A stretch of DNA of 61,439 nucleotides, the filler included, from Hausera hauseri (taxonomy: Eukaryota), in assembly GCA_046269625.1 (NCBI GenBank). It is 10 parts of 10 records of this genome, joined end to end, with 100 filler letters (N's around TTAATTAATTAA, not from the genome) between each part and the next. Parts side by side here need not be neighbours in the genome. Positions count along the whole stretch, not along the records: positions 13,404 to 24,271 come from JBJURY010146645.1; 9 more parts are not named here. The stretch is one strand, 5' to 3'. This document shows positions 10,776 to 60,837 of the stretch, one piece after another. How positions within the stretch are numbered: the first letter of the stretch is position 1; every line of letters begins with the position of its first letter. A program made the position numbers and the translations under genes. A model generated the notes under the pieces. That model was given only the letters and a program-made list of their open reading frames with translations. It did not search any database and was not told the DNA's origin.

Positions 10776-11363
10776 TTATGAGGAAACTAACATAAATATA
10801 CATCTGAGTTGACTATCAGTCACGCTCTTTTCCGAGGGTCCTTGATCAGTACCATCATTAGCACCAAATGTCGATTGTGTAAACGAACCAGACATTGTTT
10901 GATTCGATCCATCGAGAACACATATAACATCCACAATATGAGATTTGTTACATCCAACATCATTTAATCCATTAACAATTTGATCGTATATCATACAGTC
11001 TTCCATATTTCCCATATTATTTGGTTGATTTGAACCCCAAAAACGCATTTCCACAAATTTCGATCCATCGAAATTCATCCATCCCATTCTTGCCATATCT
11101 TTTTCAACAACTAGGTCAGAAATTCCGACACTGAAGTTTATTGTTTGCAATCCCAGATGTTGAATGTTGGACAAATCGGGTCCCATTGGTAAATATCCTC
11201 CGACTTTTTCACAATGCTGAGCAGAACTCGCAACTGATTCCATACTAATGAACCCTCTCAAATAATATGTTTTGTTGTGGGCTTTGAGAAATGATGGACC
11301 GCTAGAATGTATGAAAGAGCAACAGAATGACATGACTATAATTATTGAACAGCAGAAGGCCAT
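10776..11363 (-). CDS. C-type lectin domain protein
   Basis: Signal peptide, then AQHCEKVGGYL, VGISD, FWGSNQPNN..EDC, LNDVGC and VIC, the standard CTLD pattern. Confidence 0.88.
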   Translation of the reverse strand: MAFCCSIIIVMSFCCSFIHSSGPSFLKAHNKTYYLRGFISMESVASSAQHCEKVGGYLPMGPDLSNIQHLGLQTINFSVGISDLVVEKDMARMGWMNFDGSKFVEMRFWGSNQPNNMGNMEDCMIYDQIVNGLNDVGCNKSHIVDVICVLDGSNQTMSGSFTQSTFGANDGTDQGPSEKSVTDSQLRCIFMLVSS

Positions 11364-11859
11364 ATATATTTTTGTATGAATTATATTTTTAAAAAATTCA
11401 TTGCATTTTCATTTATAGTTATATTATTACGATTCTCATTCCATTGGTTCATAATTATACTTGGATAACGATTTGTCGATAAAAGATGAAATTGTGAGGA
11501 CAAGAAGAAAAGGTTAAACAAGACAATTACAGTGCTTCATGGCGGCCTTTGATTTATTAAATATGCAATTGAAGTAGTTAAAGTTGCTTGGTTCAAAATA
11601 TATTAACAAGGAACAGTACCTTACTGCTAGTCGGAGTTTTGCGGATTCAACTGGTTCAACAAGATTTACGATCAGTTTGCCCTGCAAAATCGGCGTATCG
11701 AAATCCGAAGTATCACTGGACATTTTATCGCACATTTCATCAAAAGTTGAATTTAGAGTTAAAGTTGAAATATAATTTATTATTTACAGATTTTCAAACA
11801 AATTTTCGTTTAAGAAAAATAAATAATAATTTTACTAATTATTTATTTTTGAGCAATTA

Positions 11860-13303
11860 CTTTCCCTTCTCCTTTGCGATTCTTGTTCACTCTTCAACCA
11901 TTCTACACTTCGAATTATTCTACCATCTTCCATATTTTTCAGCTCCCACTGATGTTGCGAAATTTGTCGAATTATTTGATACGGTCCTTCGAATTAATAT
12001 GTGTCTTTTCTTCTTTCTGAGGCTCTAGTTTTACTAAAACTTTCTGCTAATTTCAAAAATTCGTTTCCCTCTCTCCTACCCCTCGAAATTTTCCATTCGG
12101 TTAGCTGCTTCTGTAGTATGTCTCGTAATACTTTGTGCCAGTGTGCCGTTATCGATCTCTCTTGTAACTCCTCCAGCTGCGTGCAAGTTGATTTCCCGTT
12201 GTCCTCTGTACTGTGGCAGTTATCGAAAATTCAATTTTCGGTAGTGCACTTGTTACCAACATATCCTGAACTGTTCGGATGACCCTTTCTGCAAACCCGT
12301 TAGATTGATGTTGAAACGGACTGGTGAATATTTGTTTAATTCCGTATTTCTTGCAAAATTCTCCAAATTTGCCTCCTGAAAAACACTTACCGTTGTCAGT
12401 CAAGACTGATTTCGGTTTTCCGAATCTGTAAATCCATTTCACCAGCATGCACTCAATGATTGTTTCTTCCCTCTGCGTGCGTATTTCTGTTAGACTCACC
12501 AGCTTTGAAAACTGATCAACAATAACCAACATATATCGATACATACTATCTTTGTCTCCGACATACGCAATATCCATTACTAATTGGTCCAGAAAATTGT
12601 CACTCTTAATAGGAATGAACATTTCTCTTGTCTTTTTTGTTGGGATTTTCCGGTGTAAGCATTCTTCACATTTTCCAATAACATTTTCTGCTTCTTTTGA
12701 TAAACCCAAAACAGCGAAGTGATGTTGAATATATCATTTTGTCTTCTTCATACCCAGATAGCATAGATCCACATGTATCTTCGGGATGAAATCTTTCTAA
12801 ATATTATTTTGAATAATTGGTAGTCTGTAGTTCAGATTTTATATACCAAAAAACCGCCTGTCATTTCCAGTTTATCGGTCATACTGAGAATCTCTTTCTA
12901 GAGTTGTACCTTTTCCACCGTTGAGCCGTCAATCGACATTTTACTTGTTGTATTTCTGTACATTTTTCCTTTCGGCTTTTATCCATTGTAAGGTTGACCT
13001 GACCAATAATGAATTAATGTGCTTTACACACCCCTTTTTATGTTTTGGATCAGCATGTTTTGTTTGACACTGAGCACACATATCCTCATACAACTGCGAC
13101 AATCCTTGTGCATTTCCATGTTGTTCGCCCTTCCTATATTCTAGTATAAAATTAAAATCTGTCATATTTTCTAGCCACGTCTGGGATTGCGGTGTTATTG
13201 GCTTGGTAGCGGTCTTCATATATACCAACGCATTATAATTTGTTCTAGCCGTAAAGTGCTTACCATACAGATACTGATTAAAATGCAGCATAAACTGTTG
13301 CAA
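11860..13303 (-). pseudogene. Ty3/gypsy pol 3' part (RNase H end, integrase), degraded
   Basis: HFNQYLYGKHFTARTNY, LEYRKGEQHGNA, CEEC zinc finger, MDIAY..VDQFSK, LTDNGKCF, SNGFAERVIRT and a GPY motif near 11980. Confidence 0.9.
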
Positions 13304-13408
13304 NNNNNNNNNNNNNNNNNNNNNNNNNNNNNNNNNNNNNNNNNNNNTTAATTAATTAANNNNNNNNNNNNNNNNNNNNNNNNNNNNNNNNNNNNNNNNN
13401 NNNATTCA

Positions 13409-14440
13409 ATGAACATTACACCGTACAGTTACAGTAAAGATTTTATCAATTTGATTTCCGAGATCGAAAACAATACCTCCGGTACTGCTACCAATATCAT
13501 TCGTAAATTGCGTCAATTCGAAATAATGAACACTTCCGATTCCAGCGAAATTCTGACGTTGTTCATGAATCAGTTGGAAAGTGAAGTCCAAGTGAAAAAT
13601 GATGATATCAAAAATTTCTGCAATTTCAATTATCATGGACTTGTAGAGTCGATCCATGAATTGTCGGAGTTGAAAAGGAGTTTTGGCGAAGCTAAACAAC
13701 CGTTGACAAGTACTGTGCAGAACTTTACAAGTGTTATTCAATTTTTGAATGGTATTGATAAAGCCATCGAAAATCTTCAAATGTTCTTACCTTTGTTTGA
13801 TCAGTATTTAAAGACTGAAGAGTATTATGAAGCAGATTGCAGAGAAATCTGGGATGTCAATTATTACCGAAGGTCCTATTAAAAAGTTGCTCGATAGCAC
13901 GTCCATTAAAAAGCAAAAGACGCAATGAACTCCAAGTAAGTGAGTTATGTTACTAACGAACCAGATATTATCGAAAAAGAATTGAAAGATTTGATTTCTG
14001 TCGATTCACATCAAAGCGAAGATGATTTTTCAAGCAGCGATACGAGTATAATGAATGTTGAAGATTTGGTGCAATTCGGTCCCGTGTATCGATGTTTACA
14101 CATTCATACTTTCCTTGGTGATAGGCACGAGTTTGAGAAGTGCTACAGATCACAGAGAAAAAGACAGTACTTTACTTCTGACTCTTACCAAACAGGATAC
14201 CTATCAAAATTATTTTGATTTCCTCAGTATCAAATGTCTATTGTAACTCGAAACTATCTAGACGAACTTTGGTAGCATACTGTTACTCGAGTTAATGATT
14301 TTGTGACCGAGAACACCGAAAAGATTATGGACATCGATACATTGCTAGAATTAAAAAACAATTGTTTACTTTTGCCAGGACAATGGGATTAGTTGGTTTT
14401 AATGTTGCCGGATTTACCGACCTTTTTTATGGCATTATGA
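13409..14440 (+). pseudogene. EXOC6: Exocyst component 6 (Sec15) N-terminal part, disrupted
   Basis: DIKNFCNFNYHGLVESIHEL and VEDLVQFGPVYRCLHIHTFLGDRHEFEKCYRSQRKRQ match conserved Sec15 blocks. Frame breaks and apparent deletions lie between them. Confidence 0.8.
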
Positions 14441-14964
14441 AGTGTAAAATTTTTTTGTTTAAATACAGCACAATTTTGCTATTTCAATTCGAATTTTATT
14501 ACGCCATATTTTTTTAAAGAATTTGCTCTTCAATTTCGATTTGTACAATTTTGATATTGAATCTGTTTATATATGAGTCGATTTAGAAATTCTTTATGGA
14601 ATGATATTTTAATTGTTGATCGGATTTCATGTTACATCCATTTATTACATGTCAATTTGCACGATAACGAAAATTTCGGATTATTCATTTGGCTATCCAA
14701 CTCAGCCTGACTCAATATTTTTAATTATCGAATTAAAAATCGAAGGAAAATTTCTGCCCGCTGCAAGTTTGATCGGCAATATGTTATGCGCATTCGATTT
14801 GCCTTTTGTCGAAAAACGAACCAAACAAGGTCTTGATTTTGTTCGTTCAATTAACATAATATCTAACAACCGTAGCCGTGCTTGTTTTAATTTTAAGCCT
14901 GGATAGTACATCGGCATCAACATGTTTGCTTCCGGGTTTGTATTGAAATTCAATATTATACCGT

Positions 14965-16990
14965 GAGATCTCTTCGATTCATCTGTTGAGTCTACATGTT
15001 TGATTATTTGCCCTACACTTCAAGGTTGTGACTGCTTGATGATCCGTAACAATTATAATTTTCTGTCCGTAGACGTATATGTTAAAGTGTCGCAGAGAGT
15101 CTTTTACAGCTAATGTTTCTAATCCGTGACCGAGTAATTATTCTCGGCCTTCTTTAGTGACGTCCTCCGTATGCGATTGGATGTCCTAGTTCTTCATCCT
15201 CTCGTTTCTGAGCTAACTCATATCCAATGCCTTTTTTACTCACATCCACTTTAATTATAATTGGTAGGTTAAAATCAGGATATCTTAAAAGGGGTTCGCT
15301 AGTTAAGATTTTCTTCATTTCGTCGAAAGCTTTTTGTTCAACATCCGTCCATTTCCACTTAATTCCTTTTTTAAGTAAGCGATACAAAGATGAATTTATC
15401 CTTAAATTATCTGGTACATAAGTTGTGTAATAACCACGAAAACCTAACCAATATCTCAACTCCTTTTGGTTCTGGAGTTCCATACATTCCGATATCTTAC
15501 TTAATAATGATTTATCGGGTTTCGATCCTCCTTCTCCAACTATATGTCCAAGATAAGATACAGCGTTTTGAGCCCATTTACATTTCTTGGGATTTAATTT
15601 CAATCCAGCTTGCTCCACTCTCATGAGCCTGTCTTCAATATCTTTTAAATGATCTTTGTCTGTCTTCGATGCAGTCATTACGTCGTCCAGATACGCAAAG
15701 GCGTGTTCCAGTCCCATTAAAATCTTGTTCATCATTCGGGTAAAATGGAGGGTCCAGTAATTATCCCGAATGGTATGACATTAAATTCGTATACACCGTC
15801 GTGTGTTTTAAACGCAGTTTTGTAGCGATCTTCTATTTCTACTTGCCAATATCCGGATTGCAGATCGAGCGTGGTAAACCATTTATCTCCGGAAAGTCTA
15901 TTTAGGGTTTCTTTTACTGATGGCAGTGGGAAAGAATCTTTCATCATAAGTGTGTTTAATGCTTGGTAATCGATACAAAATCGGTGCTTTGTAGTACTTT
16001 TCTTCTTAACCATGAGTATGGGTGAGTACCAAGATCTATAGCCCGGTCTAATTATGTCGGCCCTTAACATTCATTCGACTTCCTTAGTTATCTCAGGCCT
16101 TATTGAGTGCGTAGGAGGATATCATTTCGGCATCTTTAGATCCTCTAAGTCTATTTCATCATTAAAGCCAGTGTTTTTCTTGAGTGGAATTGTGAGTCTC
16201 AAAGCTTTAGCTCTGCCAATGTCTTCTTCGTCTCTCGTGATGACTGAGTCGTAAGGACAAAGTAATTCATAACATCGACATTATGCTTCAGGTGAAAATT
16301 TAGTTTCAATGTGAGGTTGGAATTCGGCACATTTGTAAGGTTTTTCTCAACTGTTATTGACGATACTCTATATGTATGTCCCAAAGTGGTATTGGAATAC
16401 AGTTTGATCGGAGTTGGTGCATTACTAGCTATCCTAATGGGCAGACGGCCCATCGATACTCTTGTTAATACATTATCGAGTACGATGCTTGGATTTAACG
16501 ATTCCTTTGGTTAAAATGCACTGGTTTGGCATCGGCTTGACGTATCTGAGCATATATTAATACCTCGGTTCTCGGTGGGATTTTCTCGTCCACCGGAATC
16601 TATACTTCTCCGAATTGCCTATCGTTGATGGTTTTAACCCCTTTTATCGGACCGAGCTCTATTTATTTCCCTTCATGAAAGTCTATTGCTATATTAGGTA
16701 ATTGTCTCAACAGATCGCATCCTTAGACTACATCATCTGTTAATTGTTCCATTACTGAAAATTCGTGATGAAATGATTGTTTCATTATGCGAATTTCTGG
16801 CTTTCATCGGAATTTGCTTTTCGACGACTGCCCAAAAGCCCCGATGCTTCCTGGGTCTGTTGTTGAAGGTGTATATAATTATTTTCGTAAGAACTACAGT
16901 ATTGAGTCATGTTTCATCAGTGATATCTCGGATCCTGTGCCTATCAATGCGTAAACTTCCCAGTCTTCTAACTAAATTTTCGCGAAGGGT
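14965..16990 (-). pseudogene. Ty3/gypsy pol: protease, RT, RNase H, degraded
   Basis: Protease ALI[G]TGSEISLM at 16933-16941. RT SPILMVKKK..RFCIDY..LDLQSGYWQV..KTAF..PFG and AYLDDV. RNase H VDVSKKGIG..PIAYGGR and NYSVT..VTDHQA. Confidence 0.92.
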
Positions 16991-17571
16991 CTACCTTCGA
17001 TTATCGTACCATAGTAATTTGGCGTTAACTTTGGATACTGAACCGTTGAAACCTTACAGCCGTTATTTCTAACTTCTGTGGTTGCAACTGGCTGGTCGAT
17101 TAACTGTCTTAATGCACCATTTGGGTACAGTTCATTGTTCGTGCAACTGACGTTTTCCGTTTCCTGATTTATAACTGGCGGTTGTATTTCTTGGTTCCTG
17201 AAATTCTGCATCTCATAGTCTCTTGAGAATGTTGATCGTATTTCGTTCGGTCTGGGTACTCTAGGTGAATAAACTATTCCATAGTCATTGACTGCTGGGC
17301 GACGATATGGGGCAGACGTTCTTATCGTTTAGCGTACCTTGCGCAATATTCCGTAGTGTTTTGTTTCCTCATAGGGATCCTCAAGGCTGAATGGTTTTCT
17401 ATAGATATCTGTTTGGTATGAACTCATAGATTGTTTCTCTCAATGTTCATATATAGGTGCATTTGGCAGTAATATTGGTAATGGTGGTTTCATAATGGAA
17501 TAGTTTTTGTATCTATTTATCTTCGAGACGCCGTCTCCTCCCTTAGGCTCGTCATCGTCAGATTTATTTCG

Positions 17572-19557
17572 TCATGTCTTAATATTCACAAATTTGCGTT
17601 TGTAATTGAATATGCGTCTCCTTTTACATTTTCGATTATGATAGCCAACATGTCGTTCCATATACTCTTTCCATCTACTTTCTTCGTAAGCTTTTAAGAA
17701 TTTGCCGAATGGTGTGATAACAGCCGTTAAGATTTTGCATGAGAATCCGGTCAAAGCGAATATCTCATCCATTTATAATCGCTTGATTTATCGCTTTAAC
17801 CAGTTGAATTAAGAAATAGATTGCTAAAAATCCGGATGCGGCTTGTTCGAATATCAGAAGTCTTTCCAAGATTTTATACAGTATTTCTGTCGTCACTCTA
17901 TGATAGTAGTTGATACCAAGGAACGATTCCCATTTCGCTTGATAACGTGAGTCTTCTAGTGTTGTGTGCATTGCTCTGTTTAATTCATGTGTGCGTTGGT
18001 GTGGAAAAGAAAGAAATTGTCTAAATGCCTCTACTTCTTTTGGCCGGTAAATACCCTTTTCTGCAGTGTCTTGAAACTTATCATCGGTTATTTCCTTTAT
18101 TAAATTCGTTCCCGTTAGCTTGGTGGGTGGCGTGATTATACCACCGTTTGGTAAACTTACCCAATCTGTTTCACTACGTCTAAACATAGGTTGTTCTAGA
18201 CTGGTCTTACAATCCTTTAGAATCTTTGGTTGGGTGGAGTTTGCCAGTAACGCGCTAGTAACTGGTGTCACTAATCTCGATATGTCCTGGTATATTACCG
18301 GAAGTTCTTGAGTGCACCTCTTCTCTTCCACGTTGGTAGGTGCATCCATCTTTGTACATTCATCTTCGCATTCGTAGGTCACTAAAACTTCTCCGGTCAC
18401 TCGTCTAAAAACGCCTTCTTTCACCGGAATTATTGATGATGTTAGCTCGGGATTGGCATATATTAAAGCCAGTTTAGTTCTCATGACTTCTAATTCTAGT
18501 TTGCAGTCGTTCGTTATAATTTTATGGTATAACTCAGCAATTCCAGCCTGTCCATTGTTGTAGAAATAATCGTCTCTATTTTTAAAATAATCTTCAATTC
18601 GAATATCTTGAGTCTCAAACTTGAACGTTCTGGTATTTATCTCTGTTTCAGCTACAAAGAATGCTTTATAATTAATGGCGTACATTACTACATCACACCT
18701 TGTGAGTACATCTTTCTTCACAAACTTTAACCCGTGAGTATCGGAAATTAATATGGTAGGTGTAGGCTGTTCCGCTACATCCTCTCGCGTTTTTGAGTTT
18801 GTATCCGTATTACTTACGTAGCGTTTTCCTGTCGTTTCGTTAAACTTAAGTTCTTTAATTTTAATAAAATTGCAATCGGTCTTGACTGGAGGTTCCAAAA
18901 TTACTACTGAACTTCTAAAAACACAAGTTACATGTTGGATGTGGCACTTTTGGTTTTCATTATAGAGATTAGTAACGCTATGAAACATGACCTTTTGTGT
19001 GCGCATCTCGGTTTCTTAGAAATCCACAACCACTATGTTTGAAGCCAATCCATTTCCAGTATCGTATTCTGCACCGTTACAGTGACTTGTATGCATATCT
19101 AATCTTCCTGCTGCTACTTTGTATACTCTGTGTATTTTCCCTTGCTGCATTTTCAGCTCCATACCGTCCCACGTCAGCCTGCCTGTCTCTCTAGTCTGCT
19201 TACAACGCTGGCGTTCTAAGTTCATTGGTCATCGGCTTGGTTATAGACAAATGTCCGTGTATTAATCCACAATGGAAAACACTGCGAGATCGTCGTAACA
19301 TGCATTCTATTCCATCCAATGAAACTAACTCTCGTTGCTAATGCAGTACATATCTTTTTTCTTTTGTTTCTAATTTGTGGCCTCGCATCTTCGCACATTT
19401 CCAAATCCATCAATGAATATCTTTGGCCAAGTCTGAATTTGTCACAATCACATATTGTAACCGCTCCAATTTGCCTTATTAACATCATCATGGTCAGGAA
19501 ATTGAGTAGCCAGTTGGGCTCATTTCCCCGATTATTCCAAGTTAAATTTCGTAACAT
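17572..19557 (-). pseudogene. Chuvirus-like (class III, gB-type) envelope glycoprotein with frameshifts and stops
   Basis: Signal peptide then ICDC..YSL..C; ELYHKIITNDC; GEVLVTYEC; CTQELPV..VTPVT; GIY..EVEAFRQFLSFP; TM ASGFLAIYFLIQLVK. Motif order follows chuvirus-type G as I recall it. Confidence 0.8.
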
Positions 19558-20862
19558 AATTTCGAATCTACTAATACTAAAGACAGGATATTAATCCGAT
19601 ATAATCACAAATGGTAGCTGAATGCATGACAATCAATTCATCCAACGACAAATCCAGAATTCAAAAAATGGAATCAAAATAAAGTTCTGAAATTTCAAGG
19701 CGTAGCAAATTTGAATCAAAACGGTAGATGTAAAAATGTAAATGAATAGAAAACTCTGAAGCAATATCAATAAAATCAATTCAAAATGTCGCCAAGAAAA
19801 ATTTTTATTTTTATATACTGCACAAACTTCTATACGATTATGTGCACATTTATTCACAAAAATCAAATAATATAAAATTGCCATTGAAAAATTTCGGAGA
19901 TATTTGATTTATTTAAACATAAAATCATGTTTATTAAATATACAGAAGAACGCAGTATTGGCAGTATTTACAGATTTCCATAAACACGGTAAAATATGAT
20001 TGTATAAAATAATTGCAACATTTCTTAACAATAAACCACAACGGTATAATATCTGGAGATAGACTAGATCCACCAGAACTCCTCTGCGACGATCGTCTTT
20101 CTTCAGAACGAGAGCGACTTTCATTTTTAGATTTGCTTTTTGATCGACTTTTGGCTGAATCGGACCTATGTTCGTTTTTAATCACTGGAGAGTTAGACAC
20201 ATTCTTTTCAAATGAATTTGACCGCTCTTTGTTCGATCAAGATCTGCGATAATTCGTGTCACCCTTATGAACTTTTTCAAAAATTTGCCACTTTATTTCC
20301 ACGGGGTTTCGCTGATTGCAAAATCCACTAAAATCGTGGGAATGTCATTCAACTTTTGCACAGTATCGGAAACAATCTGCAAACCATTTCGAAGATAGTA
20401 GATCGGAAAGATTATGCGTAGAACTTTCAGCGGATAAAACTGCAGATTTTCGGACATTTTAGCTGGATTTGGATATTGGTACAACCTTAAAAGGAGATTT
20501 AAATTTGTTGGATCTGCACTTTAAGGGAGACGATTTGCTATTCGTGTTTGGCTCTTTGTTTGAAGGATAACTTGCTTTTTGTTTCGACTGACTGTTTTTG
20601 AAAACTGATAAGTTTGTTGGCAATGTTTTTGACAATTTCGCTTTTCCATTAACTTGCCTATACAGATGAGATGTTAAACTTACATCTGAATTATAGATGA
20701 TGATGAATGACACAGCTTTTCAAACAAGGAAAAGTAACATTTTTTGACTGACTTAATGACATCATATGAAACTACGGTTGGTAGCAATTTAAGAGAAGGT
20801 TCTTGAGTTTGAACGTTATTGGCCACAAGAGCACGATTCATGATCGGCAAAATGTGATTTGT

Positions 20863-20979
20863 TGAAGTTTTCGAGGCAAAAGATCGGTGCCCCGCCTATG
20901 GGCCCGACGCAGCGGCAATGGAGGCCCGGTCGTATCCAACCAAATGGGCCAAAGGGCACCGGCCGCCGTAGTCACTACA
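20863..20979 (-). mobile_element. GC-rich dispersed repeat, probable LTR 5' end (copy 1)
   Basis: Colinear similarity to 59370-59484; begins TGTAGTG on the minus strand. Confidence 0.6.
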
Positions 20980-20989
20980 CGGGATCGTT

Positions 20990-22700
20990 TTGAAGTTCTT
21001 TTTCAAATATTTGGACCAGTTTACTTCTTGAGGTAACTTCCTGGCGGCTTTCCGCGCTAGACTACTGTCTGTTAAATTCCTTTTATCGAGCTGGATTTAT
21101 TTTAATGGCCAAATATAGTAGCACTTTTCCTAACTCTTATATGGTGTTCTCTACCATAATTCCCTCTATCACCCTTTCATCGCTGAAGGTGCTTTTCGAT
21201 AGTTTACAGCTGAAGTTTTTCGTTGTTCTGGCTGCATTAAATATAGATTTCTCTTTTCCGTCTAATATTTCGTCACACAGACTTGAGTGGTTTACTATGC
21301 GTATTAAATTTTTCATAAGTTAATTCAGCTTTTCGTCTTCTGTACTAAAGGTTGGTATAAACATTTGTCTCAATTCTTTAATTAAATCTCCATTAATATC
21401 AGTCTCTTCTTGTGTTTTGCGCGGTCTACCGACAGGGCGCTTCTGTTTCTCTATAACTAGTACGGTCTCGTTGGATGGTACTAAATTCTTATTATATTAT
21501 TCTTTCTCTTCGTCCATTTGCAAGTATTCGAAGTACATTGCTGCATCTCGAACTCCCACGATTCGTCCTACACACTGACAGGATTTAGCTTTCCTTGTGG
21601 TCTCTTCTTTTGTTTCCTCCATGGCGACCGTTACTACTATTCGATTCGTTTCACCTGGGATAATTTCGACGTCTACTAATTGGTCTAGTTCGTCCAATAT
21701 TCTACCTCTAAAGTAAAGTCTATAGTTCAGCTTGCTTGCGTAACCATTACCCATTAGTCCCTGTACCACGTCTCTTACAGAGGAGTGCGTAGTAAATTCG
21801 CATTCTTTCTCGTCCATCCTCTCCGACGATATCTTTACCTTAATCGACTCTTCGGGTCTAGCCCTTAAGATTTTAGCATACTCTTTTAATAAAAGCTTTT
21901 GCGCTGCACTATAGATTGTAATCTCGCTAGATAGTTTAGTAAGAGTGGGTACTAAGTGTCTCAACTGATTTTGAGTAAAGTTTACATTAATTAACTTAAT
22001 TAAATCTTTTTCAGTTTTCGCTGAATCTAGAAGCATTTCCACACTGAATCTCCGATACGGCGGACATGTCTCCGTTTGGTACAAATGTACGGGGGTTTTC
22101 GGATTCTCTGCAATAATTGCGTCTAAATATGCGTCCCATTCTGGATCGTTTTCATTGTATGGTGGTCTGTAATCAACTATTAATATGTCTACTTGTTAAG
22201 CCGAATTCTCATCCAGTGCTGATTCTCTTAGATCGCGTAATTATCGTTGCATTTTATCCATTTATATCGTTAGAAAACATCGTCCATTTCCGGAACGTTT
22301 GATGCAACAGTGTTAACAACTGACATAATTCTTCAACCTGGGTCAATCCTTTGTCTTTATAATTACTGAGTTCAGAGACTACGTTCCTTTGCCATCTTTG
22401 CACAAAATGTGACTTGTCGGCTTTTTCCGAGTCTGTGAGAGCATACTTAACTTTATAAATTTCGAGTTCTTTAGCTAGCTCGTCTAATCTTATCGCTCTC
22501 TGTTCTGTTTTAGTACAAGTTTCTTCGACTTGCCGTATCGGGGACATTAATTGTCTTATCTTCTTATTACTAATTTCTGCCATTTCCACCATTAGTAGTG
22601 CTAATTCATGCATCTCATTAATTTTTGAGTCTGGATCTATAGAATCGAGCAACCTCTTTATAAACTTGTGTTCTTCAAAGCTGAGGTGGTGGTCATTTCT
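20990..22700 (-). pseudogene. Disrupted ORF with coiled-coil, ubiquitin-like domain and AT-hook
   Basis: Helical segment at 22254-22652. IKVKI..SVRDVV..YRLYFRGRILDELDQLVDVEIIPGETNRIVV within 21497-22084. KRPVGRPRK near 21420-21445, in frame past a stop. Confidence 0.6.
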
Positions 22701-22859
22701 TATTTTGGTCAGATCAGCATAACACCTTTGATCCTTCCTGATCAGCCTCTCGGGGTTTGTGTAGGAATTCTACTGCTTCTTTTATAGCTGATCGATGTTC
22801 CGGACAAAAGTCCAAGATTTCAAGATCCCAAATTGTGATCTGTTCAATAAGTTTAGCTG

Positions 22860-23591
22860 TCAAATGTTGGATTCCTTCTAAGCGAATGTAGCGTTATTGA
22901 GCTAGATATTAATTGATATCGATCGCAGTAAGACAGAATAAACAGTTGTTGATAGTTATCGAGAGAATAAACAGTTGTATAGAAATTATAGATATTAATG
23001 TGCGGCAGAATGTAATGAATGTGTAAATTTAACTCTTGTAAATAGCGATAATGGTATTTTATCGTATTTAATTTGCAATAAAACAGCTGGTTATCCGAAA
23101 TTGTATTAAAGCAACCAGTATATAAACAGATGCTTAAACAAGGTAAAGGGACAAGTATTTTTGCGACTTAGGAGCGCAGCCAAGAAGCACCGAATCTTCA
23201 ATATTCTAATTTGGTAAAAGAGACTAATTCGGTAAAAGAGACTTTCGTATCATTGACGTGATTTGTGATATTGAATTCGGATGTAATAAAGGTTACTTTA
23301 ATTTGTTGATTTTTTAAAATCCATATAGATTTCCATCGTCCCTTAAGGACGATTTGTACGACCCTAAGGCTAAAACAATACTAAAAATCATATAGCTAAG
23401 ACTAGAAACTGTTAACCGAAAAGCATACACCGCATACAGTACCCGCAAGACAGATAAAATCTCTTTAAATTTTATTAATGCACAAGCAGATTACTCGAGA
23501 ACGAGTAATCCTAACCTGCTTGAAGAGCGATTCTAAATTGAAGTAAATATTGTTATAGTGGGAGAAGGTAAGAGCCACCCTAACTGTAACA
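22860..23591 (+). mobile_element. 5' LTR of a Ty3/gypsy element (left boundary uncertain)
   Basis: Ends TGTAACA directly before a PBS. Contains TATATAAA near 23119 and AATAAA at 23285. Confidence 0.6.
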
Positions 23592-23595
23592 TATT

Positions 23596-23613
23596 TGGCG
23601 ACCCTAGCAGGAC
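23596..23613 (+). promoter_or_regulatory. Primer binding site, probably tRNA-Arg
   Basis: TGGCGACCCTAGCAGGAC follows the LTR CA end after a 4-nt spacer and is complementary to a tRNA 3' end ...GGGUCGCCA. Confidence 0.75.
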
Positions 23614-23957
23614 AGTTTGTGCCTCGCTAGACTTTACTGTTGAGAAACCAAGTAACGACATACCGGCGAATAGCGCCAATTACATCAAGTAATCGATATT
23701 GTAAGAAGTAAGAATTAAAATTTGGGCTTATAAGTTGTTAGAGGGAAATAAATTAAATCAAACTGAAAGCAAATATTGACAGAGTTAATTCTCATCAAAA
23801 CCTATTAGTGAACGGTAGTCAAAGAGAAACTCGTAACAAGCTTTATACTGAAAACAAAATAATAGATAAAAACTATCTGTCCGATACCGAATTAAATACA
23901 GTTAAAGAATTTAAAGTTCCTCATAAAACTAAGATAGATAAATTGAATAAAACCAGA

Positions 23958-24271
23958 ATGGCAGCAGATAACCCAGCGGTAGCTCAGAAACTCGATATAT
24001 TCACGTTCGACTCGCTAAACTTACCTGCATACGACGGAGATCCGGATGGATTAAATGACTTTTTAAGGACGTACAAATTGCACGCAGAAGGTGCCGGCCT
24101 TGCAGCCGAAGTTATGATAAAACGATTATCATTATATCTGAAAAATTTAGCTGCAGATGCATATAGTGAATTAACTAACGACGAGAAGAAATCGTGGTCC
24201 TCTGTAGTAGGAGCCCTGAATCGTAAATTATTACCGACAGTTACGCCACAACAGAAGCTGATGGCTTTTCA
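23958..24271 (+). CDS. gag: Ty3/gypsy Gag (capsid N-terminal part), 3'-truncated
   Basis: LPAYDGDPDGLNDFLRTY..LSLYLKNLAADAYSEL..SWSSVVGALNRKL, downstream of the PBS. Confidence 0.85.
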
Positions 24272-24371
24272 NNNNNNNNNNNNNNNNNNNNNNNNNNNNN
24301 NNNNNNNNNNNNNNNTTAATTAATTAANNNNNNNNNNNNNNNNNNNNNNNNNNNNNNNNNNNNNNNNNNNN

Positions 24372-27300
24372 TCGGTGTTGTTGACTTTCGTGTAGTGGCA
24401 TTTCATGGTGTGGTCTTTCATAATTTTGTCTTTCATGGTGTGGTCTTTCATGACGTGGTCTTCAATCATGTGAACTGCCATGTTGTCTTCTTCGATGGGG
24501 TGGTCTTTTATGGTGTGTTCTTCCATGCTGTGGTCTTTCATGGTGTGGTCTTTCATAGTGTGGTCTTCCATGGTGTGGGATATATTGTTGTGATATTCGA
24601 TGGCGTAGTTTTTCATTGTTTGGTCTTTCATTGTGTGGTTTTCCATGTTGTGGTCTTCCATGGTGTGGCCTTTCATTGTGTGGTCTTTCATAGTGTGGTC
24701 TTCCATGGTGTGGGATATATTATTGTGATATTCGATGGCGTAGTCTTTCATTGTTTGGTCTTTCATTGTGTGGTCTTCCATGTTGTGGTCTTCCAAGGTG
24801 TGGCCTTCCATGGTGTGGTCTTTCGTGGTGTGGTCTTTCATGGTATGATCTTCCATGGCGTGTTCTTTCTTGTATTCGTCTTCCACGGTGTGGCTTTCCA
24901 TGGTGTGGTTTTTTATTGTGTGGTCTTTCATGGTGTGGTCTTCCTTGGTGTGGTCTTCCATGGTGTGGTGTCCTTGCTGTGGTCTTTCATGGTGTGGTCT
25001 TGTATGGTGTGGTCTTCAATGGCGTTGTCTTCCATGGTGTGGCCTTCCAAGTTGTGGTCTTTCGTGGTGTCGTCTTTCATGGTATAATCTTTTATTGCGT
25101 GGTCTTCCTTGTCGTCGTCTTCCACGGTGTGGCCTTTCATGGTGTGGTCTTTTATAGTGTGGTCTTTCATGGTGTGGTCTTCCTTGGCGTGGTCTTTCAT
25201 GGTGTGCTTTTCTTGCTGTGGTCTTTCATGGTGTGGTCTTCCATGGTGTGGTCTTCCATGGCGTTGTTTTCCATGGTGTGGTCTTCCATGGTGTGGTCTT
25301 TCGTGGTGTGGTCTTTCCTGGTATGATCTTCCATGGCTAGGTCTTCCTTGTCGTGGTCTTCCACAATGTGGTCTTGCATGGTGTGGCCTTCCTTGGTGTG
25401 GTCTTCCATGGTGTGGTTTTCTTGCTGTGGTCTTTCATGGTGTGGTCTTCCATGGTGTGGTCTTCCATGGCGTTGTCTTTCATGGTGTGGTCTTTCATGG
25501 TGTGGTTTTCGTGCTGTGGTCTCTCATGGTGTGGTTTACCATGGTGTGGTCTTTTATGGTATGGTATTCCATGGTGTGGTATTCCTTGTCGTTGTCTTCC
25601 ATGGTATGGTCTTCGATGTCGTGGTGTTCCATGGTGTGGCCTTCCATGTCGTGGTCTTACATGGTGTGTTCTTTCATGGTGTGGTCTATCCTGGTGTGGT
25701 CTTTCTTGTTGTCATCTTCCTTGTCGTTGTCTTCCATGGTATGGTCTTCCATGTCGTGGTGTTCCATGGTGTGGGTTTTCATGTCGTGGTCTTACATGGT
25801 GTGGTCTGTCATGGCGTGGTCTGTCATGGCGTGGTCTTCAGTCGTCTGAACTGCCATGTTGTGGTCTTCGATGGCGTGGTCTTTCATGGTGTGTTCTTCC
25901 ATGCTGTGGTCTTTCATGGTGTAATATTTTATAGTGTGGTCTTCCATGGTGTGGGATTCCATATTGTGGTCTTCCATGGTGTGGCCTTTCATGGTGTGGT
26001 CTTTTATGGTGTGGTCTTCCATGCTTTGGTCGTATATGGTGTGGTCTTTCATTATGTTGTCTTCTATGGTGTGGTCTTCCATGGTATGGTCTTTCATGGT
26101 GTGGTCTTCTTTGGTATGGTCTTACATATTATGGTCTTCCACAATGTAGGCTATCATGGTGAGGTCTTCCATGGTTTGGTCTTCCGTGGTGTGGTTTTTC
26201 ATCGTGTGGTCTTTCATTGTGTGGTCTTCCATGGTGTGGTTTTCTATGGTGTGGTCTATCATGGTGTTGTCTTTCATGGTATGGTCTTCCATGGTATCGT
26301 CTTCTGTGTCGTGGTCTTCCACAATGTAGTCTTCCATGGTGTGGCCTTCCATGGTGTGGTCTTTCGTGGTGTGGTCTTTCATGGTATGATCTTCCACGGT
26401 GTGGTCTTCCTTGTCGTTGTCTTCCACGGTGTGGCCTTCCATGGTGTGGTCTTTTATTGTGTGGTCTTTCGTGGTGTGGTCTTCCTTGGTGTGGTCTTCC
26501 ATGGTGTGGTTTTCTTGCTGTGGTCTTTCATGGTGTGGTCTGCCATGGTGTGGTCTTCCATGGCGATGTCTTCCATGGTGTGGTCTTCCATGGTGTGGTT
26601 TTCGTGCTGTGGTCTCTCATGGTGTGGTTTGCCATGGTGTGGTCTTTTATGGTATGGTATTCCATGGTGTGGTATGCATTGTCGTTGTCTTCCATGGTAT
26701 GGTCCTCCATGTCTTGGTCTTCCATGGTGTGGCCTTCCATGTCGTGTTCTTACATGGTGTGGTCTTTCATGGCGTTGTCTTTATTTGTGTGGTCTTCCAT
26801 GGTGTGTTCTTTCATGGTGTGGTCTTTCATGTTGTGGTCTTTTATTGTGTGGTCTTCCATGTTGTGGTCTTCCATGTCGTGGTCTTCGAAGGTGTGGTTT
26901 TTGATGTTGTGTCCTTTCATGGTGTGGTCTTTCGTGGTGTTGTCTTCCATGCTGTGGTCTCTTATGGTGTGGTCCTTCATCGTGTGGTCTTCCATGTTGT
27001 GGTCTTCGGTGTTGTTGACTTTCGTGTAGTGGCATTTCATGGTGTGGTCTTTCATNNNNNNNNNNNNNNNNNNNNNNNNNNNNNNNNNNNNNNNNNNNNN
27101 NNNNNNNNNNNNNNNNNNNNNNNNNNNNNNNNNNNNNNNNNNNNNNNNNNNNNNNAATTTTGTCTTTCATGGTGTGGTCTTTTATAGCGCGGTCTTCAAT
27201 TATGTGAACTGCCATGTTGTCTTCTTCAATGGGGTGGTCTTTCATGGTGTGCTCTTCCATGCTGTGGTCTTTCATGGTGTGGTCTTTCATAGTGTGGTCT

Positions 27301-30300
27301 TCCATGGTGTGGGATTCCTTGTTGTAATATTCGGTGGCGTAGTCTTTCATTGTTTGGTCTTTTATTGTGTGTTCTTCCATGTTGTGGTCTTAGATGGTGT
27401 GGCCTTTCATGGTGTGGTCTTTCATGGTGTGGTCTTCCATGCTTTGGTCTTATATGGTGTGGTCTTTCATTATGTTGTCTTCCATGGTGTGGTCTTCCAT
27501 GGTATAGTCTTTTATGGTGTGGTCTTCCATGGTATGGTCTTACATATTATGGTCTTCCATGGTGTGATCTATCATGGTGAGGTCTTCCATGGTTTGGTCT
27601 TCCATGGTGTGGGCTTCCATTTTGTGGTCGTCCGTGGTGTGGTCTTTCATCGTGTGGTCTTTCACTGTGTGGTCTTCCATGGTGTGTTCTTTCATAGTGT
27701 GGACTTCCATGGTGCGGTTTTCAATGCCGTGGTCTTCCATGGTATGGTATTTTATGGTGTGGTCTTTTATGGTATGGTCTTACATGGTATTGTCTTCCTT
27801 GTCGTGGTCTTCCATGATGTGATCTTTCATGGTGTGGTCTTCTATGGTGTAATCTTTCTTGGTGTTGCCTTCCTTGTCGTGGTCTTCCATAGTGCGGTCT
27901 TCCTTGTCGTGGTCTATCATGGTGTTGTCTACCATGGTGTGGTCTTCCATTGTGTGGTCTTTCATGTTGTGTTCTTTCATGGTGTGGTCTTCCATGCTGT
28001 GGTCTTCCATCGTGTAATCTTTCATGGTGTTGCCTTCCTTTTTGTGGTCTTCCATGGTGTGGTCTTCCTTGTCGTGGTCTTTCATGGTGTGGTCTATCAT
28101 GGTGTGATCTTCCATGGTGTGGTCTTTCATTTTGTGTTATTTCATGATGTGGTCTTCCATGGTGTTGTCTTTTGTAATGAAATCTTTTATGGCGTTGTCT
28201 TCCTTGTCGTGGTCTTCCATGGTGTGGACTTCCTTGAAGTGGTCGTTCATGGTGTGGTCTTCCATGGTGTGGTCTTCCATGCCGTGGTCTTCCATGGTAT
28301 GGTCTTTCACGGTGTGGTCCTTCATGGTATGGTCTTACGTGGTATGGTCTTCCTTGTCGTGGTGTTCCATGGTGTGGTCTTTCATGGTGTGGTCTTTCAT
28401 TGTGTGGTCTTCATTGGTGTGGTCTTTCATGATGTGGTCTTCCATGCCGTAGACTTCCATGGAATGGTCTTTCATGGTGTGGTCTTTCATGGTATGGTTC
28501 TACATGGTATGGTCTTCCTTGGTGTGGTCTTCCATGGTGTGGTCTTCCATGGTGTAAACTTTCATGGTGTTGCCTTCCAAGTCGTGGTCTTTTATGGTGT
28601 GGTCTTTCATGGTTTGGTCTTTCATTGTATGGTTTCCCTTGGTGTGGTCTTCCATGGTGTAGTCTTCCATGGTGTAATCTTTATTGGTGTTGCCTTCCTT
28701 GTCGTCGTCTTCCATGGTGTGGCCTTCCATGCCCTAGTCTTCCATGGTATGGTCTTTCATATTGTGGTCTTTCATGGTATGGTCTTACATGGTATGGTTT
28801 TCCTTGTCGTGGTCTTCCATGGTGTGGCCTTTCATGGCGTTGTCTTTCATTGTGTGTTCTTCCATGGTGTCATCTTCCATGGTGTGCTTTTATTGGTGGG
28901 GTCTTTTATGGTATGGTATTACACGGTGTGGTCTTCCTTGTCGTTGTCTTCCATGGTGTGGCCTTCTATGGTGTAGTCTTTTTTTGTGCGGTATTCATTG
29001 ATGTGGTCTTCCTTGTCGTTGTCTTCCATGTTCTGGTTCTCCATGTATTCGTCTTCCATGGTGTGGCCTTCCATGTCGTGTTCTTACATGGTGTGGTCTT
29101 TCATGGCGTGGTCTTTATTTGTGTGGTCTTCCATGGTGTGTTCTTGCATGGTGTGGTCTTTCATGGTGTGGTCTTTCATGCTGTGGTCTTCCATGGTGTG
29201 GTATTCTATGGTCTGGTCTTCCATGTCGTGGTCTTCTAAGGTGTGGTTTTTGATGTTGTGTCCTTTCATGGTGTGGTCTTCCATGGTGTAATCTTTTATA
29301 ATGTTGCCTTTTTTGTCGTGGTCTTCCATGGTGTGGTCTTTCATGGTTTGTTCTTTCATTGTATGGTCTTCCTTGGTGTTGTCTTCCATGGTGTGCTCTT
29401 CCATGGTGTAATCTTTATTAATGTTGCCTTCCTTGTCGTGGTCGCCCATGGTGTGGCCTTCCATGCCCTGGTCTTCCATGGTGTGGACTTTCATGGCGTG
29501 GTTTTTCATTGTGTGGTCTTCCTTGGTGTGGTCTTCCATGGTGTGGCTTTTCATGGCGTGGTCTTTCATGGTGTGGTCTTCCATGGTGTGGTTTTTTATG
29601 CCGTGGTCTTCCTTGGTGTGGTCTTCCATGATGTGGTCTTCCATGGTGTAATCTTTATTGGTGTTGCCTTCCTTGTCGTGGTCTTCCATGGTGTGGACTT
29701 CCGTGCCCTGGTCTTCCATGGTCTGGTCTTTCATGGTGTGGTCTTTCATGGCATGGTCTTACATGGTATGGTCTTCCTTGGTGTGGTCTGCCATGGTGTG
29801 GTCTTTCAAGGTATGGTCTTACATGGTATGATCTTCCTTGTCGTGATCTTCCATGGTGTGGCCTTTCATGGCGTGTTCTTTCATTGTATGGTCTTCCTTG
29901 GTGTGGTCTTTTATGGTATGGCCTTTCATGGCGTGGTCTTTCATTGTGTGGTCTTCCATGGTGTGATCTTCCATGGTGTGGTTTTCATGCTGTGGTCTTT
30001 CATGGTGTGGTTTTCCTTGGTGGGGTCTTTTATGGTATTGTATTGCATGGTGTGGTCTTTCTTGTCGTTGTCTTGCTACGTGTGGACTTTTATAATGTAG
30101 TCTTTTATTGTGTGGTCTTACATGGAGTGGTCTCTCATGGTGTGGTATTTCATGATATGGTCTTCCATGGTATGGTCTTCCTTGTCGTGGTCTTCCATGG
30201 TGTGGTCTTCCATGGTGTGGCCTTTCATGTCATGGTCTTACATGATGTGATGTTTCATGGTGTGGTCTTCCATGGTGTGGTCTTTCATGTTTTGTTCTTT

Positions 30301-31067
30301 CATGGTGTGGTCTTCCATGGTGTGGTCTTCCATCGTGTAATCTTTCATGGTCTTGCCTTCCTTTTCGTGGTCTTCCATGGTGCGGTCTTCCTTGTCGTGG
30401 TCTTTCATGTTGTGGTCTATCATGGTGTTATCTTCCATGGTGTGGTCTTTCATGTTGTGTTATGTAATGGTGTGGTCTTCCATGGTGTAGTCTTTTGTAA
30501 TGTAATCTTTTATGGTGTTTTCTTCCTTGTCGTGGTCTTCCATAGTGTGGTCTTCCTTGAGGTGGTCGTTCATCGTGTGGTCTTCCATGGTGTGGTCTTC
30601 CATGCCGTGGTCTTCCATGGTATGGTCTTTCATGGTGTGGTCCTTCATGGTATGGTCTTACATGGTATGGTCTTCCTTGTCATGGTGTTCCATGATGTGG
30701 TCTTTCATGGTGTGGTCTTTCATTCTGTGGTCTTCCTTGGTGTGGTCTTCCATGGTGTGGTTTTCATGCTGTGGCCTTTCATGGTGTGGTTTTCCTTGGC
30801 GGGGTCTTTTATAATATGGTATTGCTTTGTGTGGTCTTTCTTGTCGTTGTCTTGCATGGTGTGGCCTTCCATGGTGTGGTCTTACATTGTGTGGTATTCC
30901 GTGATGTGGTCTTCCTTGTCGTTGTCTTCCATGTTCTGGTCCTCCATGTCTTCGTCTTCCATGGTTTGGCCTTCCATGTCGTGTTCTTATATGGTGTGGT
31001 CTTTCATGGCGTGGTCTTTATTTGTGTGGTCTTCCATGGTGTGTTCTTGCATGGTGTGGTCTTTCAT
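24372..31067. repeat. 15-bp tandem repeat array, consensus CATGGTGTGGTCTT(C/T)
   Basis: Fills the whole contig. Reads (HGVVF)n on + and (MEDHT/MKDHT)n on -. Confidence 0.98.
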
Positions 31068-31272
31068 NNNNNNNNNNNNNNNNNNNNNNNNNNNNNNNNN
31101 NNNNNNNNNNNTTAATTAATTAANNNNNNNNNNNNNNNNNNNNNNNNNNNNNNNNNNNNNNNNNNNNGCTGATAAATCCAGGCCCGTGTCACCAGATAAA
31201 CACTTGCCAGTATTCCAGCCCATATTTAGTGTGGGATTTCTGTGAAACCGCTAACGCGTGTCGCCTCCGCAG

Positions 31273-32115
31273 ACATCGATCAGCTGATCACCATCAGCGG
31301 CATGGTGATCCGCACCTCGCAGCTCATCCCTGAGATGCAGGAGGCGTTCTTCCAGTGCCAGGTGTGCGCCTTCAGCACCCGCGTGGAGGTGGATCGCGGC
31401 CGCATCGCCGAGCCGGCCGTGTGTCGCCACTGCAACACCACCCACGGCCTGGCGCTCATTCACAACCGCTCGCTGTTCTCCGACAAGCAGATGGTGAGGG
31501 TTCGCTCGGGGTCGCTGCCGGGGCAGATTGCTCATCGCCGCCGCCGCCTGATCTCAGGACGTGTCGGGTGGTGATTAGCGAGGTGTTGCGGCCGAGGTCA
31601 TGACATCTTTTGATGTTTCTTCGCGGCAGATCAAGATTCAGGAGTCCCCTGAAGACATGCCAGCCGGCCAGACGCCCCACACGACCATTGTGTACGCTCA
31701 CAACGACCTGGTGGATAAAGTGCAGCCGGGAGACAGAGTGAACATCACCGGTAATAAATCTCTCTTCATTTCTGCAGCACTTCATCGGACATATATTCCT
31801 TATCTTTGATTTGTTAGCTATGACTTTAACACTCTATGATTTTGTCTATGTCCAGGTATCTACAGGGCCGTCCCGATGCGCGTCAACCCACGTCAGAGCA
31901 ACGTGAAGTCCGTTTACAAGACCCACATCGACGCCATCCACTTCCGCAAGACGGAGGAAAAGCGCCTGCACGGTTTGGACGAAGAGGCAGAGCAGAAACT
32001 CTTCACCGAGGACCGCGTGCAGACCCTGAAGGAGCTGGCGGCAAAACCCGACGTTTACGAGCGCCTCTCCTCTGCCCTGGCGCCGAGCATCTACGAACAC
32101 GAGGACATCAAGAAA
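31273..32115 (+). CDS. mcm4: DNA replication licensing factor MCM4, three internal exons (31273-31493, 31630-31750, 31856-32115)
   Basis: [37 protein letters not shown]|[21 protein letters not shown]|[16 protein letters not shown] with GT-AG boundaries that keep frame. Vertebrate-like protein with short introns, suggesting a teleost. Confidence 0.96.
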
Positions 32116-32374
32116 GTGGGTGTTGGGATGGAAATAGAGGGAGAAACTTGAGTTTGTATTCAAATTAAAACACATTGTCTTTCATAAGATTTGTCATTGC
32201 GTCCCGTCTGTTTCAAACTTTCAGTTTCTCTTTCCAATATAGTGTTTTATATAAACCATGCCATGGTGTAGGGCGCATTTTTGTGACTTTAACGGTGTCT
32301 TTCATCTTTGATGGAATTTGATATTTTTTAATGGAAAGAGTAACACTAGTCAGTTATACAGTATTGTATAACTA

Positions 32375-36751: not shown

Positions 36752-36851
36752 NNNNNNNNNNNNNNNNNNNNNNNNNNNNNNNNNNNNNNNNNNNNTTAAT
36801 TAATTAANNNNNNNNNNNNNNNNNNNNNNNNNNNNNNNNNNNNNNNNNNNN

Positions 36852-37350
36852 GAGCAGGATCAACTTTGTGGCTTGCCATTGTCACATTTCGGAAACTCTC
36901 GAAAACATCAGCTAGAAGAAGCACATCAATTATTAGATATAAATCACTGTAATCACCCAGTGTCTTACAGTTGAATGAGCTCCAAACGTTTTGAACATGT
37001 GCATAATCTTCATCGCTAATGTCCGAATCCGAAAATTTGTTGTAAAACATTTCCAGAGGTGGCAAATTGGTTTCATCCAATTTGTTCATGACGTGATGTA
37101 GTCATAGGGACAAACACCCTTTTGTTTAACTAGATGGAATTTGTCATTCTGGAAGTATCTTCTGGTCTCCTTTAGTTCACTTTCTAGCAGATTTCTCACC
37201 AATTAATCCAAGCTACTGCTCATAAATTTTAGACTGTCTATAAAACGCAGCTGTATCGTTTCAAAATGCACAGTGAAAGTAATATACTTTTCTTTACTGT
37301 GTGGGATAACATAAATTTTTCCATTCACATTTCCAAGTTCTCTGATAATG
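36852..37350 (-). pseudogene. Polinton-type PolB fragment
   Basis: VIPHSKEKYITF..LRFIDSLKFMSSSLD, KGVCPYDY, TLGDYSDLYLIIDVLLLADVFESFR. Confidence 0.9.
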
Positions 37351-37799
37351 ACATCAATGGATCCATTGAATTTCACCTGCATTTCCACTGGCGCCACCTT
37401 TTCCTCTCTTTGACCGACTTTCCTACTTTTCCAAAAATATGCCAACCCCATGTTTCCAACATCATTCGAATGCCCATACTCTACTCTACACTTTCTCCTG
37501 TCCATCCCTGCTCAAGTTTTGCTTCTGAAAAAGTTCGTTTTATTCTTTTGCATTTCCCGGCTTTGTCTTTTGCGACACAGGAAATCTGACCACACCACTG
37601 AACTCGCCGTTGTCGAGTTGACCAATCAGCATGCGAGCCGCTTGCGATTGGTCAATAGGTGCGTGGGTTGAGCCTCTTTGGTCTAGAAGGCTCTTCTTTC
37701 CCCTACTGATTCCAAAGTACATGGCAACTTCCAAATGGACTCCTCTACTCCTTAAACAACTAAATAAACATACATATTATTTTTCCCTGGGCTTGCCTC

Positions 37800-59369: not shown

Positions 59370-59484
59370 TGAATTTTATGAGGCGGGAGATCGGGGCCCG
59401 CCATGGTCCCGACGCGGCAGCAGCGGACGCCTGGCCGTGCCTGACCAAATGAGGCAAAGGGCACCGACCGCTGTTGGCACCACA
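59370..59484 (-). mobile_element. GC-rich dispersed repeat, probable LTR 5' end (copy 2), interrupting PolB
   Basis: Starts TGTGGTG exactly after the PolB ExoII codons NFRGY; similar to 20863-20979. Confidence 0.6.
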
Positions 59485-60790: not shown

Positions 60791-60837
60791 ATTGCACTTT
60801 GAGGTGGTGTTGATGTTAGAATTTTCTCATTTCTTAC

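Follow-up and report, generated by a model that had tools for sequence, protein, structure and literature searches.

Can a Ty3/gypsy element make its envelope glycoprotein and its polymerase in one chain, with Env placed ahead of Pol? This question is raised by a stretch of 61,439 nucleotides of DNA from Hausera hauseri (GenBank assembly GCA_046269625.1; the whole stretch is called the window here), which consists of short contigs joined by N spacers. One 10.9-kb contig in it (JBJURY010146645.1, window positions 13404-24271) carries an element in which a chuvirus-type glycoprotein (G) lies upstream of protease, reverse transcriptase (RT) and RNase H. We found that this element is best explained as one member of a multi-copy Ty3/gypsy family, now truncated and decayed. 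Relatives of this family encode Gag, a spacer, a class III glycoprotein and protease-RT-RNase H-integrase in a single protein, as the ancestor of the window copy probably did too. We give this reading a probability of roughly 0.88.

A class III glycoprotein upstream of a gypsy Pol

On the minus strand, Pfam, profile and hydropathy analyses bore out the order given in a first-pass annotation of this DNA, namely signal sequence, glycoprotein, membrane anchor, linker, protease, RT and RNase H, with ENV upstream of POL. The signal sequence and the start of the glycoprotein lie at 19378-19557, where tblastn with relatives gave 29-40% identity and hydropathy placed the hydrophobic core near 19509-19477; in relatives this signal is internal to the chain. 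The class III (chuvirus/gB-type) ectodomain and membrane anchor follow at 17768-19376, identified by Pfam, fold searches and the G tree described below, with a single membrane segment by hydropathy at about 17854-17798. Positions 17000-17766 hold a post-anchor segment and a linker of low complexity that share the reading frame of the protease, followed by the aspartic protease and protease-RT linker (16342-16992; profile independent E-values (iE) of 5e-17 and 2e-4, Pfam RVP at E 0.05 only), for which the protease profile of relatives matched 16992-16506 at iE 5e-17. The RT, connection and RNase H occupy 14860-16298 in three frames and are of gypsy type, as judged by RVT_1, RT_RNaseH and RT_RNaseH_2, tblastn and the RT tree. 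The closest Protein Data Bank (PDB) chain to one relative, P0004, was Ty3-G Gag-Pol (5e-119); for the short pol piece of the window, the caulimovirus-type chain 8r0s slightly outscored Ty3. P-numbers denote predicted proteins of relatives, and continuity in a single chain was read at this protein level.

The class III-like, chuvirus-type character claimed for the glycoprotein was upheld by both domain and structure searches. Pfam PF24664 (Monjiviricetes_fusion) matched 17768-19228 with an E-value of 1.1e-32. A model of G built from a 15-row alignment (predicted local distance difference test score (pLDDT) 63, predicted template-modelling score (pTM) 0.33) was used for Foldseek searches, in which chuvirus and related glycoproteins ranked first among viral structures (best 7.5e-16) and herpes gB ranked first in the PDB (E 7e-4, with low TM-scores); Atlas matches for G agreed with this chuvirus/gB fold. 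A motif search of supplementary file 2 of PMC13524379, for placing the window G among the ENV groups of that study, gave nothing.

The copy itself is dead and decayed, because its coding path is disrupted by seven frameshifts (near 19378, 19230, 17767, 16480, 16300, 15745 and 15160) and 18 stops, the catalytic Asp of the protease motif at 16941-16933 is lost and integrase is absent. The first two breaks split G over three frames, and the G frame ends in a TGA at 17767-17765. Homology of the element stops near 14860, ahead of integrase; an integrase at 12152-12733 was rejected as part of the element, as it lies on another contig across an N spacer. The copy is truncated at both ends, and no flanking long terminal repeat (LTR) pair could be located, no long direct repeat being found on the contig. 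On the other side the element reaches at least 22027, beyond the extent of 14965-19557 annotated before.

Env and Pol share one chain in relatives

As had been claimed, the post-anchor tail (from 17772), the linker (17211) and the protease motif (16933-16941) share one frame, broken by isolated stops, four of which lie ahead of the motif. About 310 codons lie between the anchor and the motif, compared with the linker of about 200 codons reported earlier. Fusion of G to this frame is not visible in the window copy, because the G frame closes at 17767-17765 and the tail continues in a different one. The evidence for fusion comes from relatives. HMMER (phmmer) with the G open reading frame (ORF) found 227 proteins at E<=0.001, 17 of them at E<=1e-20, with long chains as the top matches; this result superseded a word-index search that had found no longer G homologues. 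Thirteen of the 17 reach the anchor, and ten of these 13 continue in the same chain into protease, including P0009, in which protease is recognized by motif at the very end only. A second search, restricted to chains of 1444-4598 residues and hence biased to long ones, added eight relatives. Among the anchor-bearing relatives that were scored (n=23), 21 run into protease and 14 into RT.

The post-anchor segment is conserved in relatives, and the window retains it. Against the relatives' post-anchor profile, the window segment from 17763 ranked third of 122,718 six-frame segments, and G joined to the tail frame scored 32.7 bits, compared with 20.5 and 19.4 when the remaining two frames were used; the tail piece alone was not significant (iE 6). 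Because ten of 13 relatives run in frame into protease and the window tail matches the post-anchor segment in register, the Env-Pol fusion is, on sequence comparison, ancestral. The earlier proposal that G is fused to Pol thus holds for the ancestor, by the relatives and the tail register, but not for this copy, where the G frame differs.

G and Pol group with the same relatives

We compared the G and RT phylogenies. A FastTree tree was built from the window G, 16 fused G and 23 stand-alone G sampled as every third of 68; in it, the window G nested among the fused G, apart from the 23 stand-alone sequences (support 100 and 97). The RT tree was a quick IQ-TREE analysis of 43 RT/RNase H domains, comprising 14 G-fused domains, 28 others left after removal of near-duplicates and the window; the background, gathered by a search with P0004, is mostly from pseudoscorpion elements. 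The RT phylogeny proposed as a check on the locus placed the window RT in the G-fused clade with a Shimodaira-Hasegawa-like approximate likelihood ratio test value of 97, a clade that also includes the G-less protein P0297. Eight of the nine best RT matches of the window were G-fused.

Depth and junctions were taken from the contigs of X1, the one public sequencing run listed for the stretch, which may be its source sample; no RNA run was listed. Summed contig depth was thousands-fold over G and Pol compared with tens on the flanks, and the family is therefore highly repeated. Read support across 16900-17800, which the first-pass annotation had singled out, was partial: X1 contigs with a sequence identical to that of the window span 17221-17561, and 17370-17703 and 17674-17899 are bridged by other contigs, but depth was low at 17035-17397.

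Gag and the Gag-Env spacer

The first-pass annotation had placed no Gag between G and protease, and this stands, as the sole match of the Gag profile on the contig is on the plus strand. Its Gag-less Env-Pol ancestor does not: in relatives Gag lies upstream of Env in the chain and the signal is internal, and the window keeps a spacer upstream. Gag-profile matches precede G in 11 of 24 relatives, and six chains (P0023, P0157, P0159, P0160, P0163 and P0164) combine a Gag N-terminal domain and zinc knuckle with G, protease and RT; Pfam Retrotrans_gag and zf-CCHC were also used for these Gag calls. In the window only the spacer survives upstream of ENV, with a Gag fragment on the opposite strand.

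In many relatives, Gag and the signal sequence are separated by a domain that is helical in part and otherwise ubiquitin-like in appearance, and we found this spacer domain at 21631-22027 on the minus strand (iE 1.5e-8 with a profile of five relatives and 2.2e-13 with one of 12 segments). Its ubiquitin identity is a lead only: Atlas gave PF11976/PF00240 at 0.85-0.86, Pfam gave no match, and a single-sequence model showed a beta-beta-alpha-beta-beta-beta arrangement at pLDDT 50. An AT-hook-like GRP motif at 21416-21439 (-), in the same frame as the spacer domain, scored E 0.045 with Pfam AT_hook, below the cut-off; the GRP motif also precedes Env in P0002, P0003, P0006, P0119 and P0151. Further upstream, a helical ORF fragment of 171 codons at 22257-22769 (-), taken from the ORF list, has multi-copy X1 depth over 22480-22842 and no BLAST match below E 2 among the stored proteins; it is probably part of the element's Gag-Env spacer.

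The spacer is separated from the signal sequence by about 1.4 kb (19580-21005, -). This is a later insertion that some other copies lack, because its depth is low (27-87 inside, compared with thousands beside it), two X1 contigs skip it, joining 19579/19584 to 21015/21005, and its head recurs elsewhere: 20863-20979, GC-rich and starting with TG, matches 59370-59484 at 76% over 117 nt. No target-site duplication or TG..CA unit was found around the insertion. The head leads into serine/arginine-rich coding-like sequence of low copy.

At the far end of the contig, 23206-24271 on the plus strand is the high-copy 5' end of a same-clade element placed head to head, with X1 depth of 10,000-24,000. 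Its Gag start at 23931-24269 (+) runs off the contig and matches the Gag profile at 24009-24234 (iE 2.6e-12). All eight of its BLAST matches below E 1e-4 were Env-fused relatives, and none was among 96 Gag-bearing background proteins. This Gag start belongs to a second copy in head-to-head orientation or marks an inversion. Upstream of it, at 23590-23615 (+), a CA is closely followed by TGG, a candidate LTR end and primer-binding site.

A model for the Gag-Env-Pol chain

These relatives suggest how such a chain could be handled by the cell. Gag would be made first and remain cytosolic; the internal signal sequence would then thread the glycoprotein into the lumen of the endoplasmic reticulum, and the membrane anchor would return the chain to the cytosol, leaving protease-RT-RNase H-integrase tethered to the tail of Env. 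After cutting by signal peptidase, Gag and Env-Pol would be separate proteins that meet again on one membrane at budding, where the protease of the element would set the enzymes free. It is plausible that Pol is packaged through the Env tail, within a Gag-Env-Pol chain, because that cut at the internal signal would separate Gag from Env-Pol. The ancestor proposed by the first-pass annotation, a membrane-anchored Env-Pol with Pol on the cytosolic side, may be retained as to the single Env-Pol frame and the cytosolic Pol, given the relatives and the tail register, but not as to the absence of Gag. After insertion, the window copy would have acquired its frameshifts and stops, lost integrase and same-strand Gag, and gained the 1.4-kb insertion.

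Alternative explanations

Several observations weigh against an ancestor that made Gag, Env and Pol in one chain. Three of the 13 anchor-reaching relatives (P0007, P0014 and P0016) end within about 110 residues of the anchor. X1 contigs on 17300-17900 list no indel at a 40% share, in a table that is insensitive (the clear break at 15160 appeared in only three contigs). Continuity in relatives is that of predicted proteins, and topology and cleavage were deduced from hydropathy only. The window has a long branch in both trees, and the RT tree is a quick one. The Gag profile detected neither capsid nor zinc knuckle on the contig's minus strand; a search with an alignment (A2) gave no related loci in genome, viral or metagenome contigs, nor did the window G in viral contigs; and no intact copy from the source genome was seen.

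Some of these observations would suit an Env encoded by a separate ORF that closes at the TGA at 17767, with Pol made separately or by programmed frameshifting there: the G frame stops right after the anchor, X1 contigs list no majority indel at 17767, and three relatives end soon after the anchor. We consider this very unlikely, as relatives have an uninterrupted segment where the break occurs and the match is picked up in register in the next frame, the break shows no classical slippery heptamer, the copy has six other frameshifts, two of them within RT/RNase H, and the silent indel table is the insensitive one. It is highly improbable, too, that the ancestor was an Env-Pol protein from the signal peptide onward, with Gag absent or supplied elsewhere. 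An ATG precedes the signal sequence at 19557, the contig has no same-strand Gag, and the chains of P0001, P0002, P0008 and P0013 show none; yet 11 relatives have a Gag-profile match upstream of G in the same chain, the spacer domain that lies upstream in the window adjoins the signal region in other copies (X1 contigs), and in the Gag-less relatives, which may be truncated or broken, additional sequence precedes the signal. Least credible is a chance neighbourhood or mis-assembly that set an endogenous chuvirus glycoprotein beside an unrelated gypsy pol. The window is made of short joined contigs rich in repeats, no listed X1 piece spans the whole stretch and the linker is thinly covered, but the fused relatives with which G groups are also those with which RT groups, the G family profile carries on into the tail, and the X1 contigs described above cover or bridge parts of the linker. 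An ancestral Gag-Env-Pol chain, since broken in this copy, is the explanation we prefer.

Relation to known elements

The premise that such an arrangement would be new is outdated. An env in frame between gag and pol was published in 2019 for Burro/GYPSM1, a giant planarian gypsy element with one ORF (Arkhipova and Yushenova 2019, PMC6431247). According to the cited passages, this ORF holds retrotrans_gag, CCHC knuckles, a Ubi2/SUMO-like domain, env, protease, RT, RNase H and integrase, and its env matches mononegavirus fusion proteins. Six relatives of the window element resemble Burro as there described, having Gag-Env-Pol order with env in frame in one chain, and BCL2-like (P0007) and ankyrin (P0151) modules recur in some relatives. 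Where Burro has its Ubi2/SUMO-like domain, the window has the spacer shared with relatives, in which the ubiquitin likeness amounts to leads. Unlike in Burro, MATH, BIR and ankyrin were not seen in the window copy; profiles from four and five relatives found no BCL2-like domain before Env in the window, where decay may hide it. As to the in-frame env of Burro, the window copy has a break at 17767 and is interrupted by an insertion; the register of its tail speaks for continuity. Burro exceeds 30 kb and has LTRs, compared with a window contig of 10.9 kb. We did not assign the window copy to Burro in the strict sense, as it yielded no BCL2-like domain and the comparison was by description.

Nematode endogenous retroviruses (NERVs), which Sacco and colleagues reportedly described in 2022, are said to have a continuous gag-env-pro-pol ORF. 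They would resemble the window element in having Env before Pol and an RNA-virus glycoprotein in a metavirus.

In Ty3/gypsy elements, env of the gB/chuvirus type is widespread, and GAG-ENV-POL errantiviruses with HSV/gB-type ENV occur in Nematoda, Bryozoa and Platyhelminthes (Chary and Hayashi, eLife 2026, PMC13524379), with at least 9 flatworm and 10 bryozoan rows in supplementary file 1. They share with the window element a Ty3/gypsy pol and a gB/chuvirus-type env between gag and pol. The cited passages give gene order, and the terms 'fused', 'single ORF', 'polyprotein' and 'in-frame' were not found in them; the elements described there are intact, whereas the window copy is dead. Atlas virus, a BEL/Pao element with env, makes a single polyprotein in the order Gag-Pol-Env with a class II env (cited passages of PMC9094657), and Chuviridae-like G in mosquito BEL/Pao elements is cited in PMC13524379. 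In contrast to both, the window Pol is Ty3/gypsy and Env lies upstream of it. BEL/Pao elements have Pao pol and env after integrase; here RNase H is of gypsy type, env precedes protease, and no Pao families were found in the window or the fused relatives.

The layout is thus uncommon yet already published, including in flatworm elements. With this locus, the few gypsy elements known to have env in frame between gag and pol gain a further high-copy family, and the agreement of the RT and G trees indicates that the Gag-Env-Pol layout is common to a broad clade. It also poses the question of how a particle is built from a one-chain, membrane-threaded polyprotein, for which intact relatives would be useful and the dead window copy is a poor object.

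Further modules in relatives

Integrase follows RNase H in relatives, and in 11 of 13 integrase-bearing relatives at least two further hydrophobic segments come after it. A signal-like segment, ectodomain and anchor follow integrase in P0002, P0004, P0013, P0151, P0154, P0157-P0160, P0163 and P0164; such membrane segments are not in P0161, and P0023 is cut. This arrangement suggests that the post-integrase module is a second membrane protein. The cited passages of PMC6431247 and PMC13524379 make no mention of it, and no literature search was aimed at it. It is possible, at somewhat less than even odds, that the relatives form a varied clade, most of it unnamed, of gypsy elements with a single Gag-Env-Pol ORF, in which Pol is a cytosolic loop between the class III fusogen and the post-integrase signal-plus-anchor module. 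If so, Pol would be packaged through membrane tethers at both ends and not in the form of a Gag-Pol fusion, and the second module might serve in attachment.

A BCL2-like segment lies just before the Env signal sequence in P0001, P0007, P0016, P0119 and P0159, which share a profile; P0007 also matches Pfam Bcl-2 at E 1e-3. Tandem aspartic-protease domains lie between Env and RT and after integrase in P0151, P0006, P0157, P0160 and P0161, with up to seven in P0151, which also has ankyrin repeats (Ank_2) and a C2H2 finger. P0004 (HBK71150.1), a full Env-Pol gypsy polyprotein, is filed under a Flavobacteriaceae metagenome-assembled genome and is probably eukaryotic contamination of that bin.

Other features of the window

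Next to the 3' end of the element, 13409-13879 (+) has a host-like match to the N-terminal part of Vps51/Exo84 or Sec15 (E 1e-5). On a separate contig, 1284-4804 (-) holds four successive ORFs of 172-420 codons with no Pfam match, two of which have membrane segments or signal-like starts and cysteine-rich parts; this row could be an endogenous viral segment. Fragments of Polinton-like genes for a protein-primed DNA polymerase of B type lie at 4961-7277 (+), 36796-37511 (-) and 59697-60815 (-), with DNA_pol_B_2 at E 3e-4 for 6165-6914. A host-like fragment with a C-type lectin domain is on another contig at 10779-11408 (-), and a 15-nt unit with strong AT skew forms a long array at 24320-31067. 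Two MCM exons (MCM_OB and MCM P-loop) lie at 31230-32168 (+) on a contig of higher GC content; their protein, which we take to be vertebrate-like, is possibly from host or prey DNA in the assembly.

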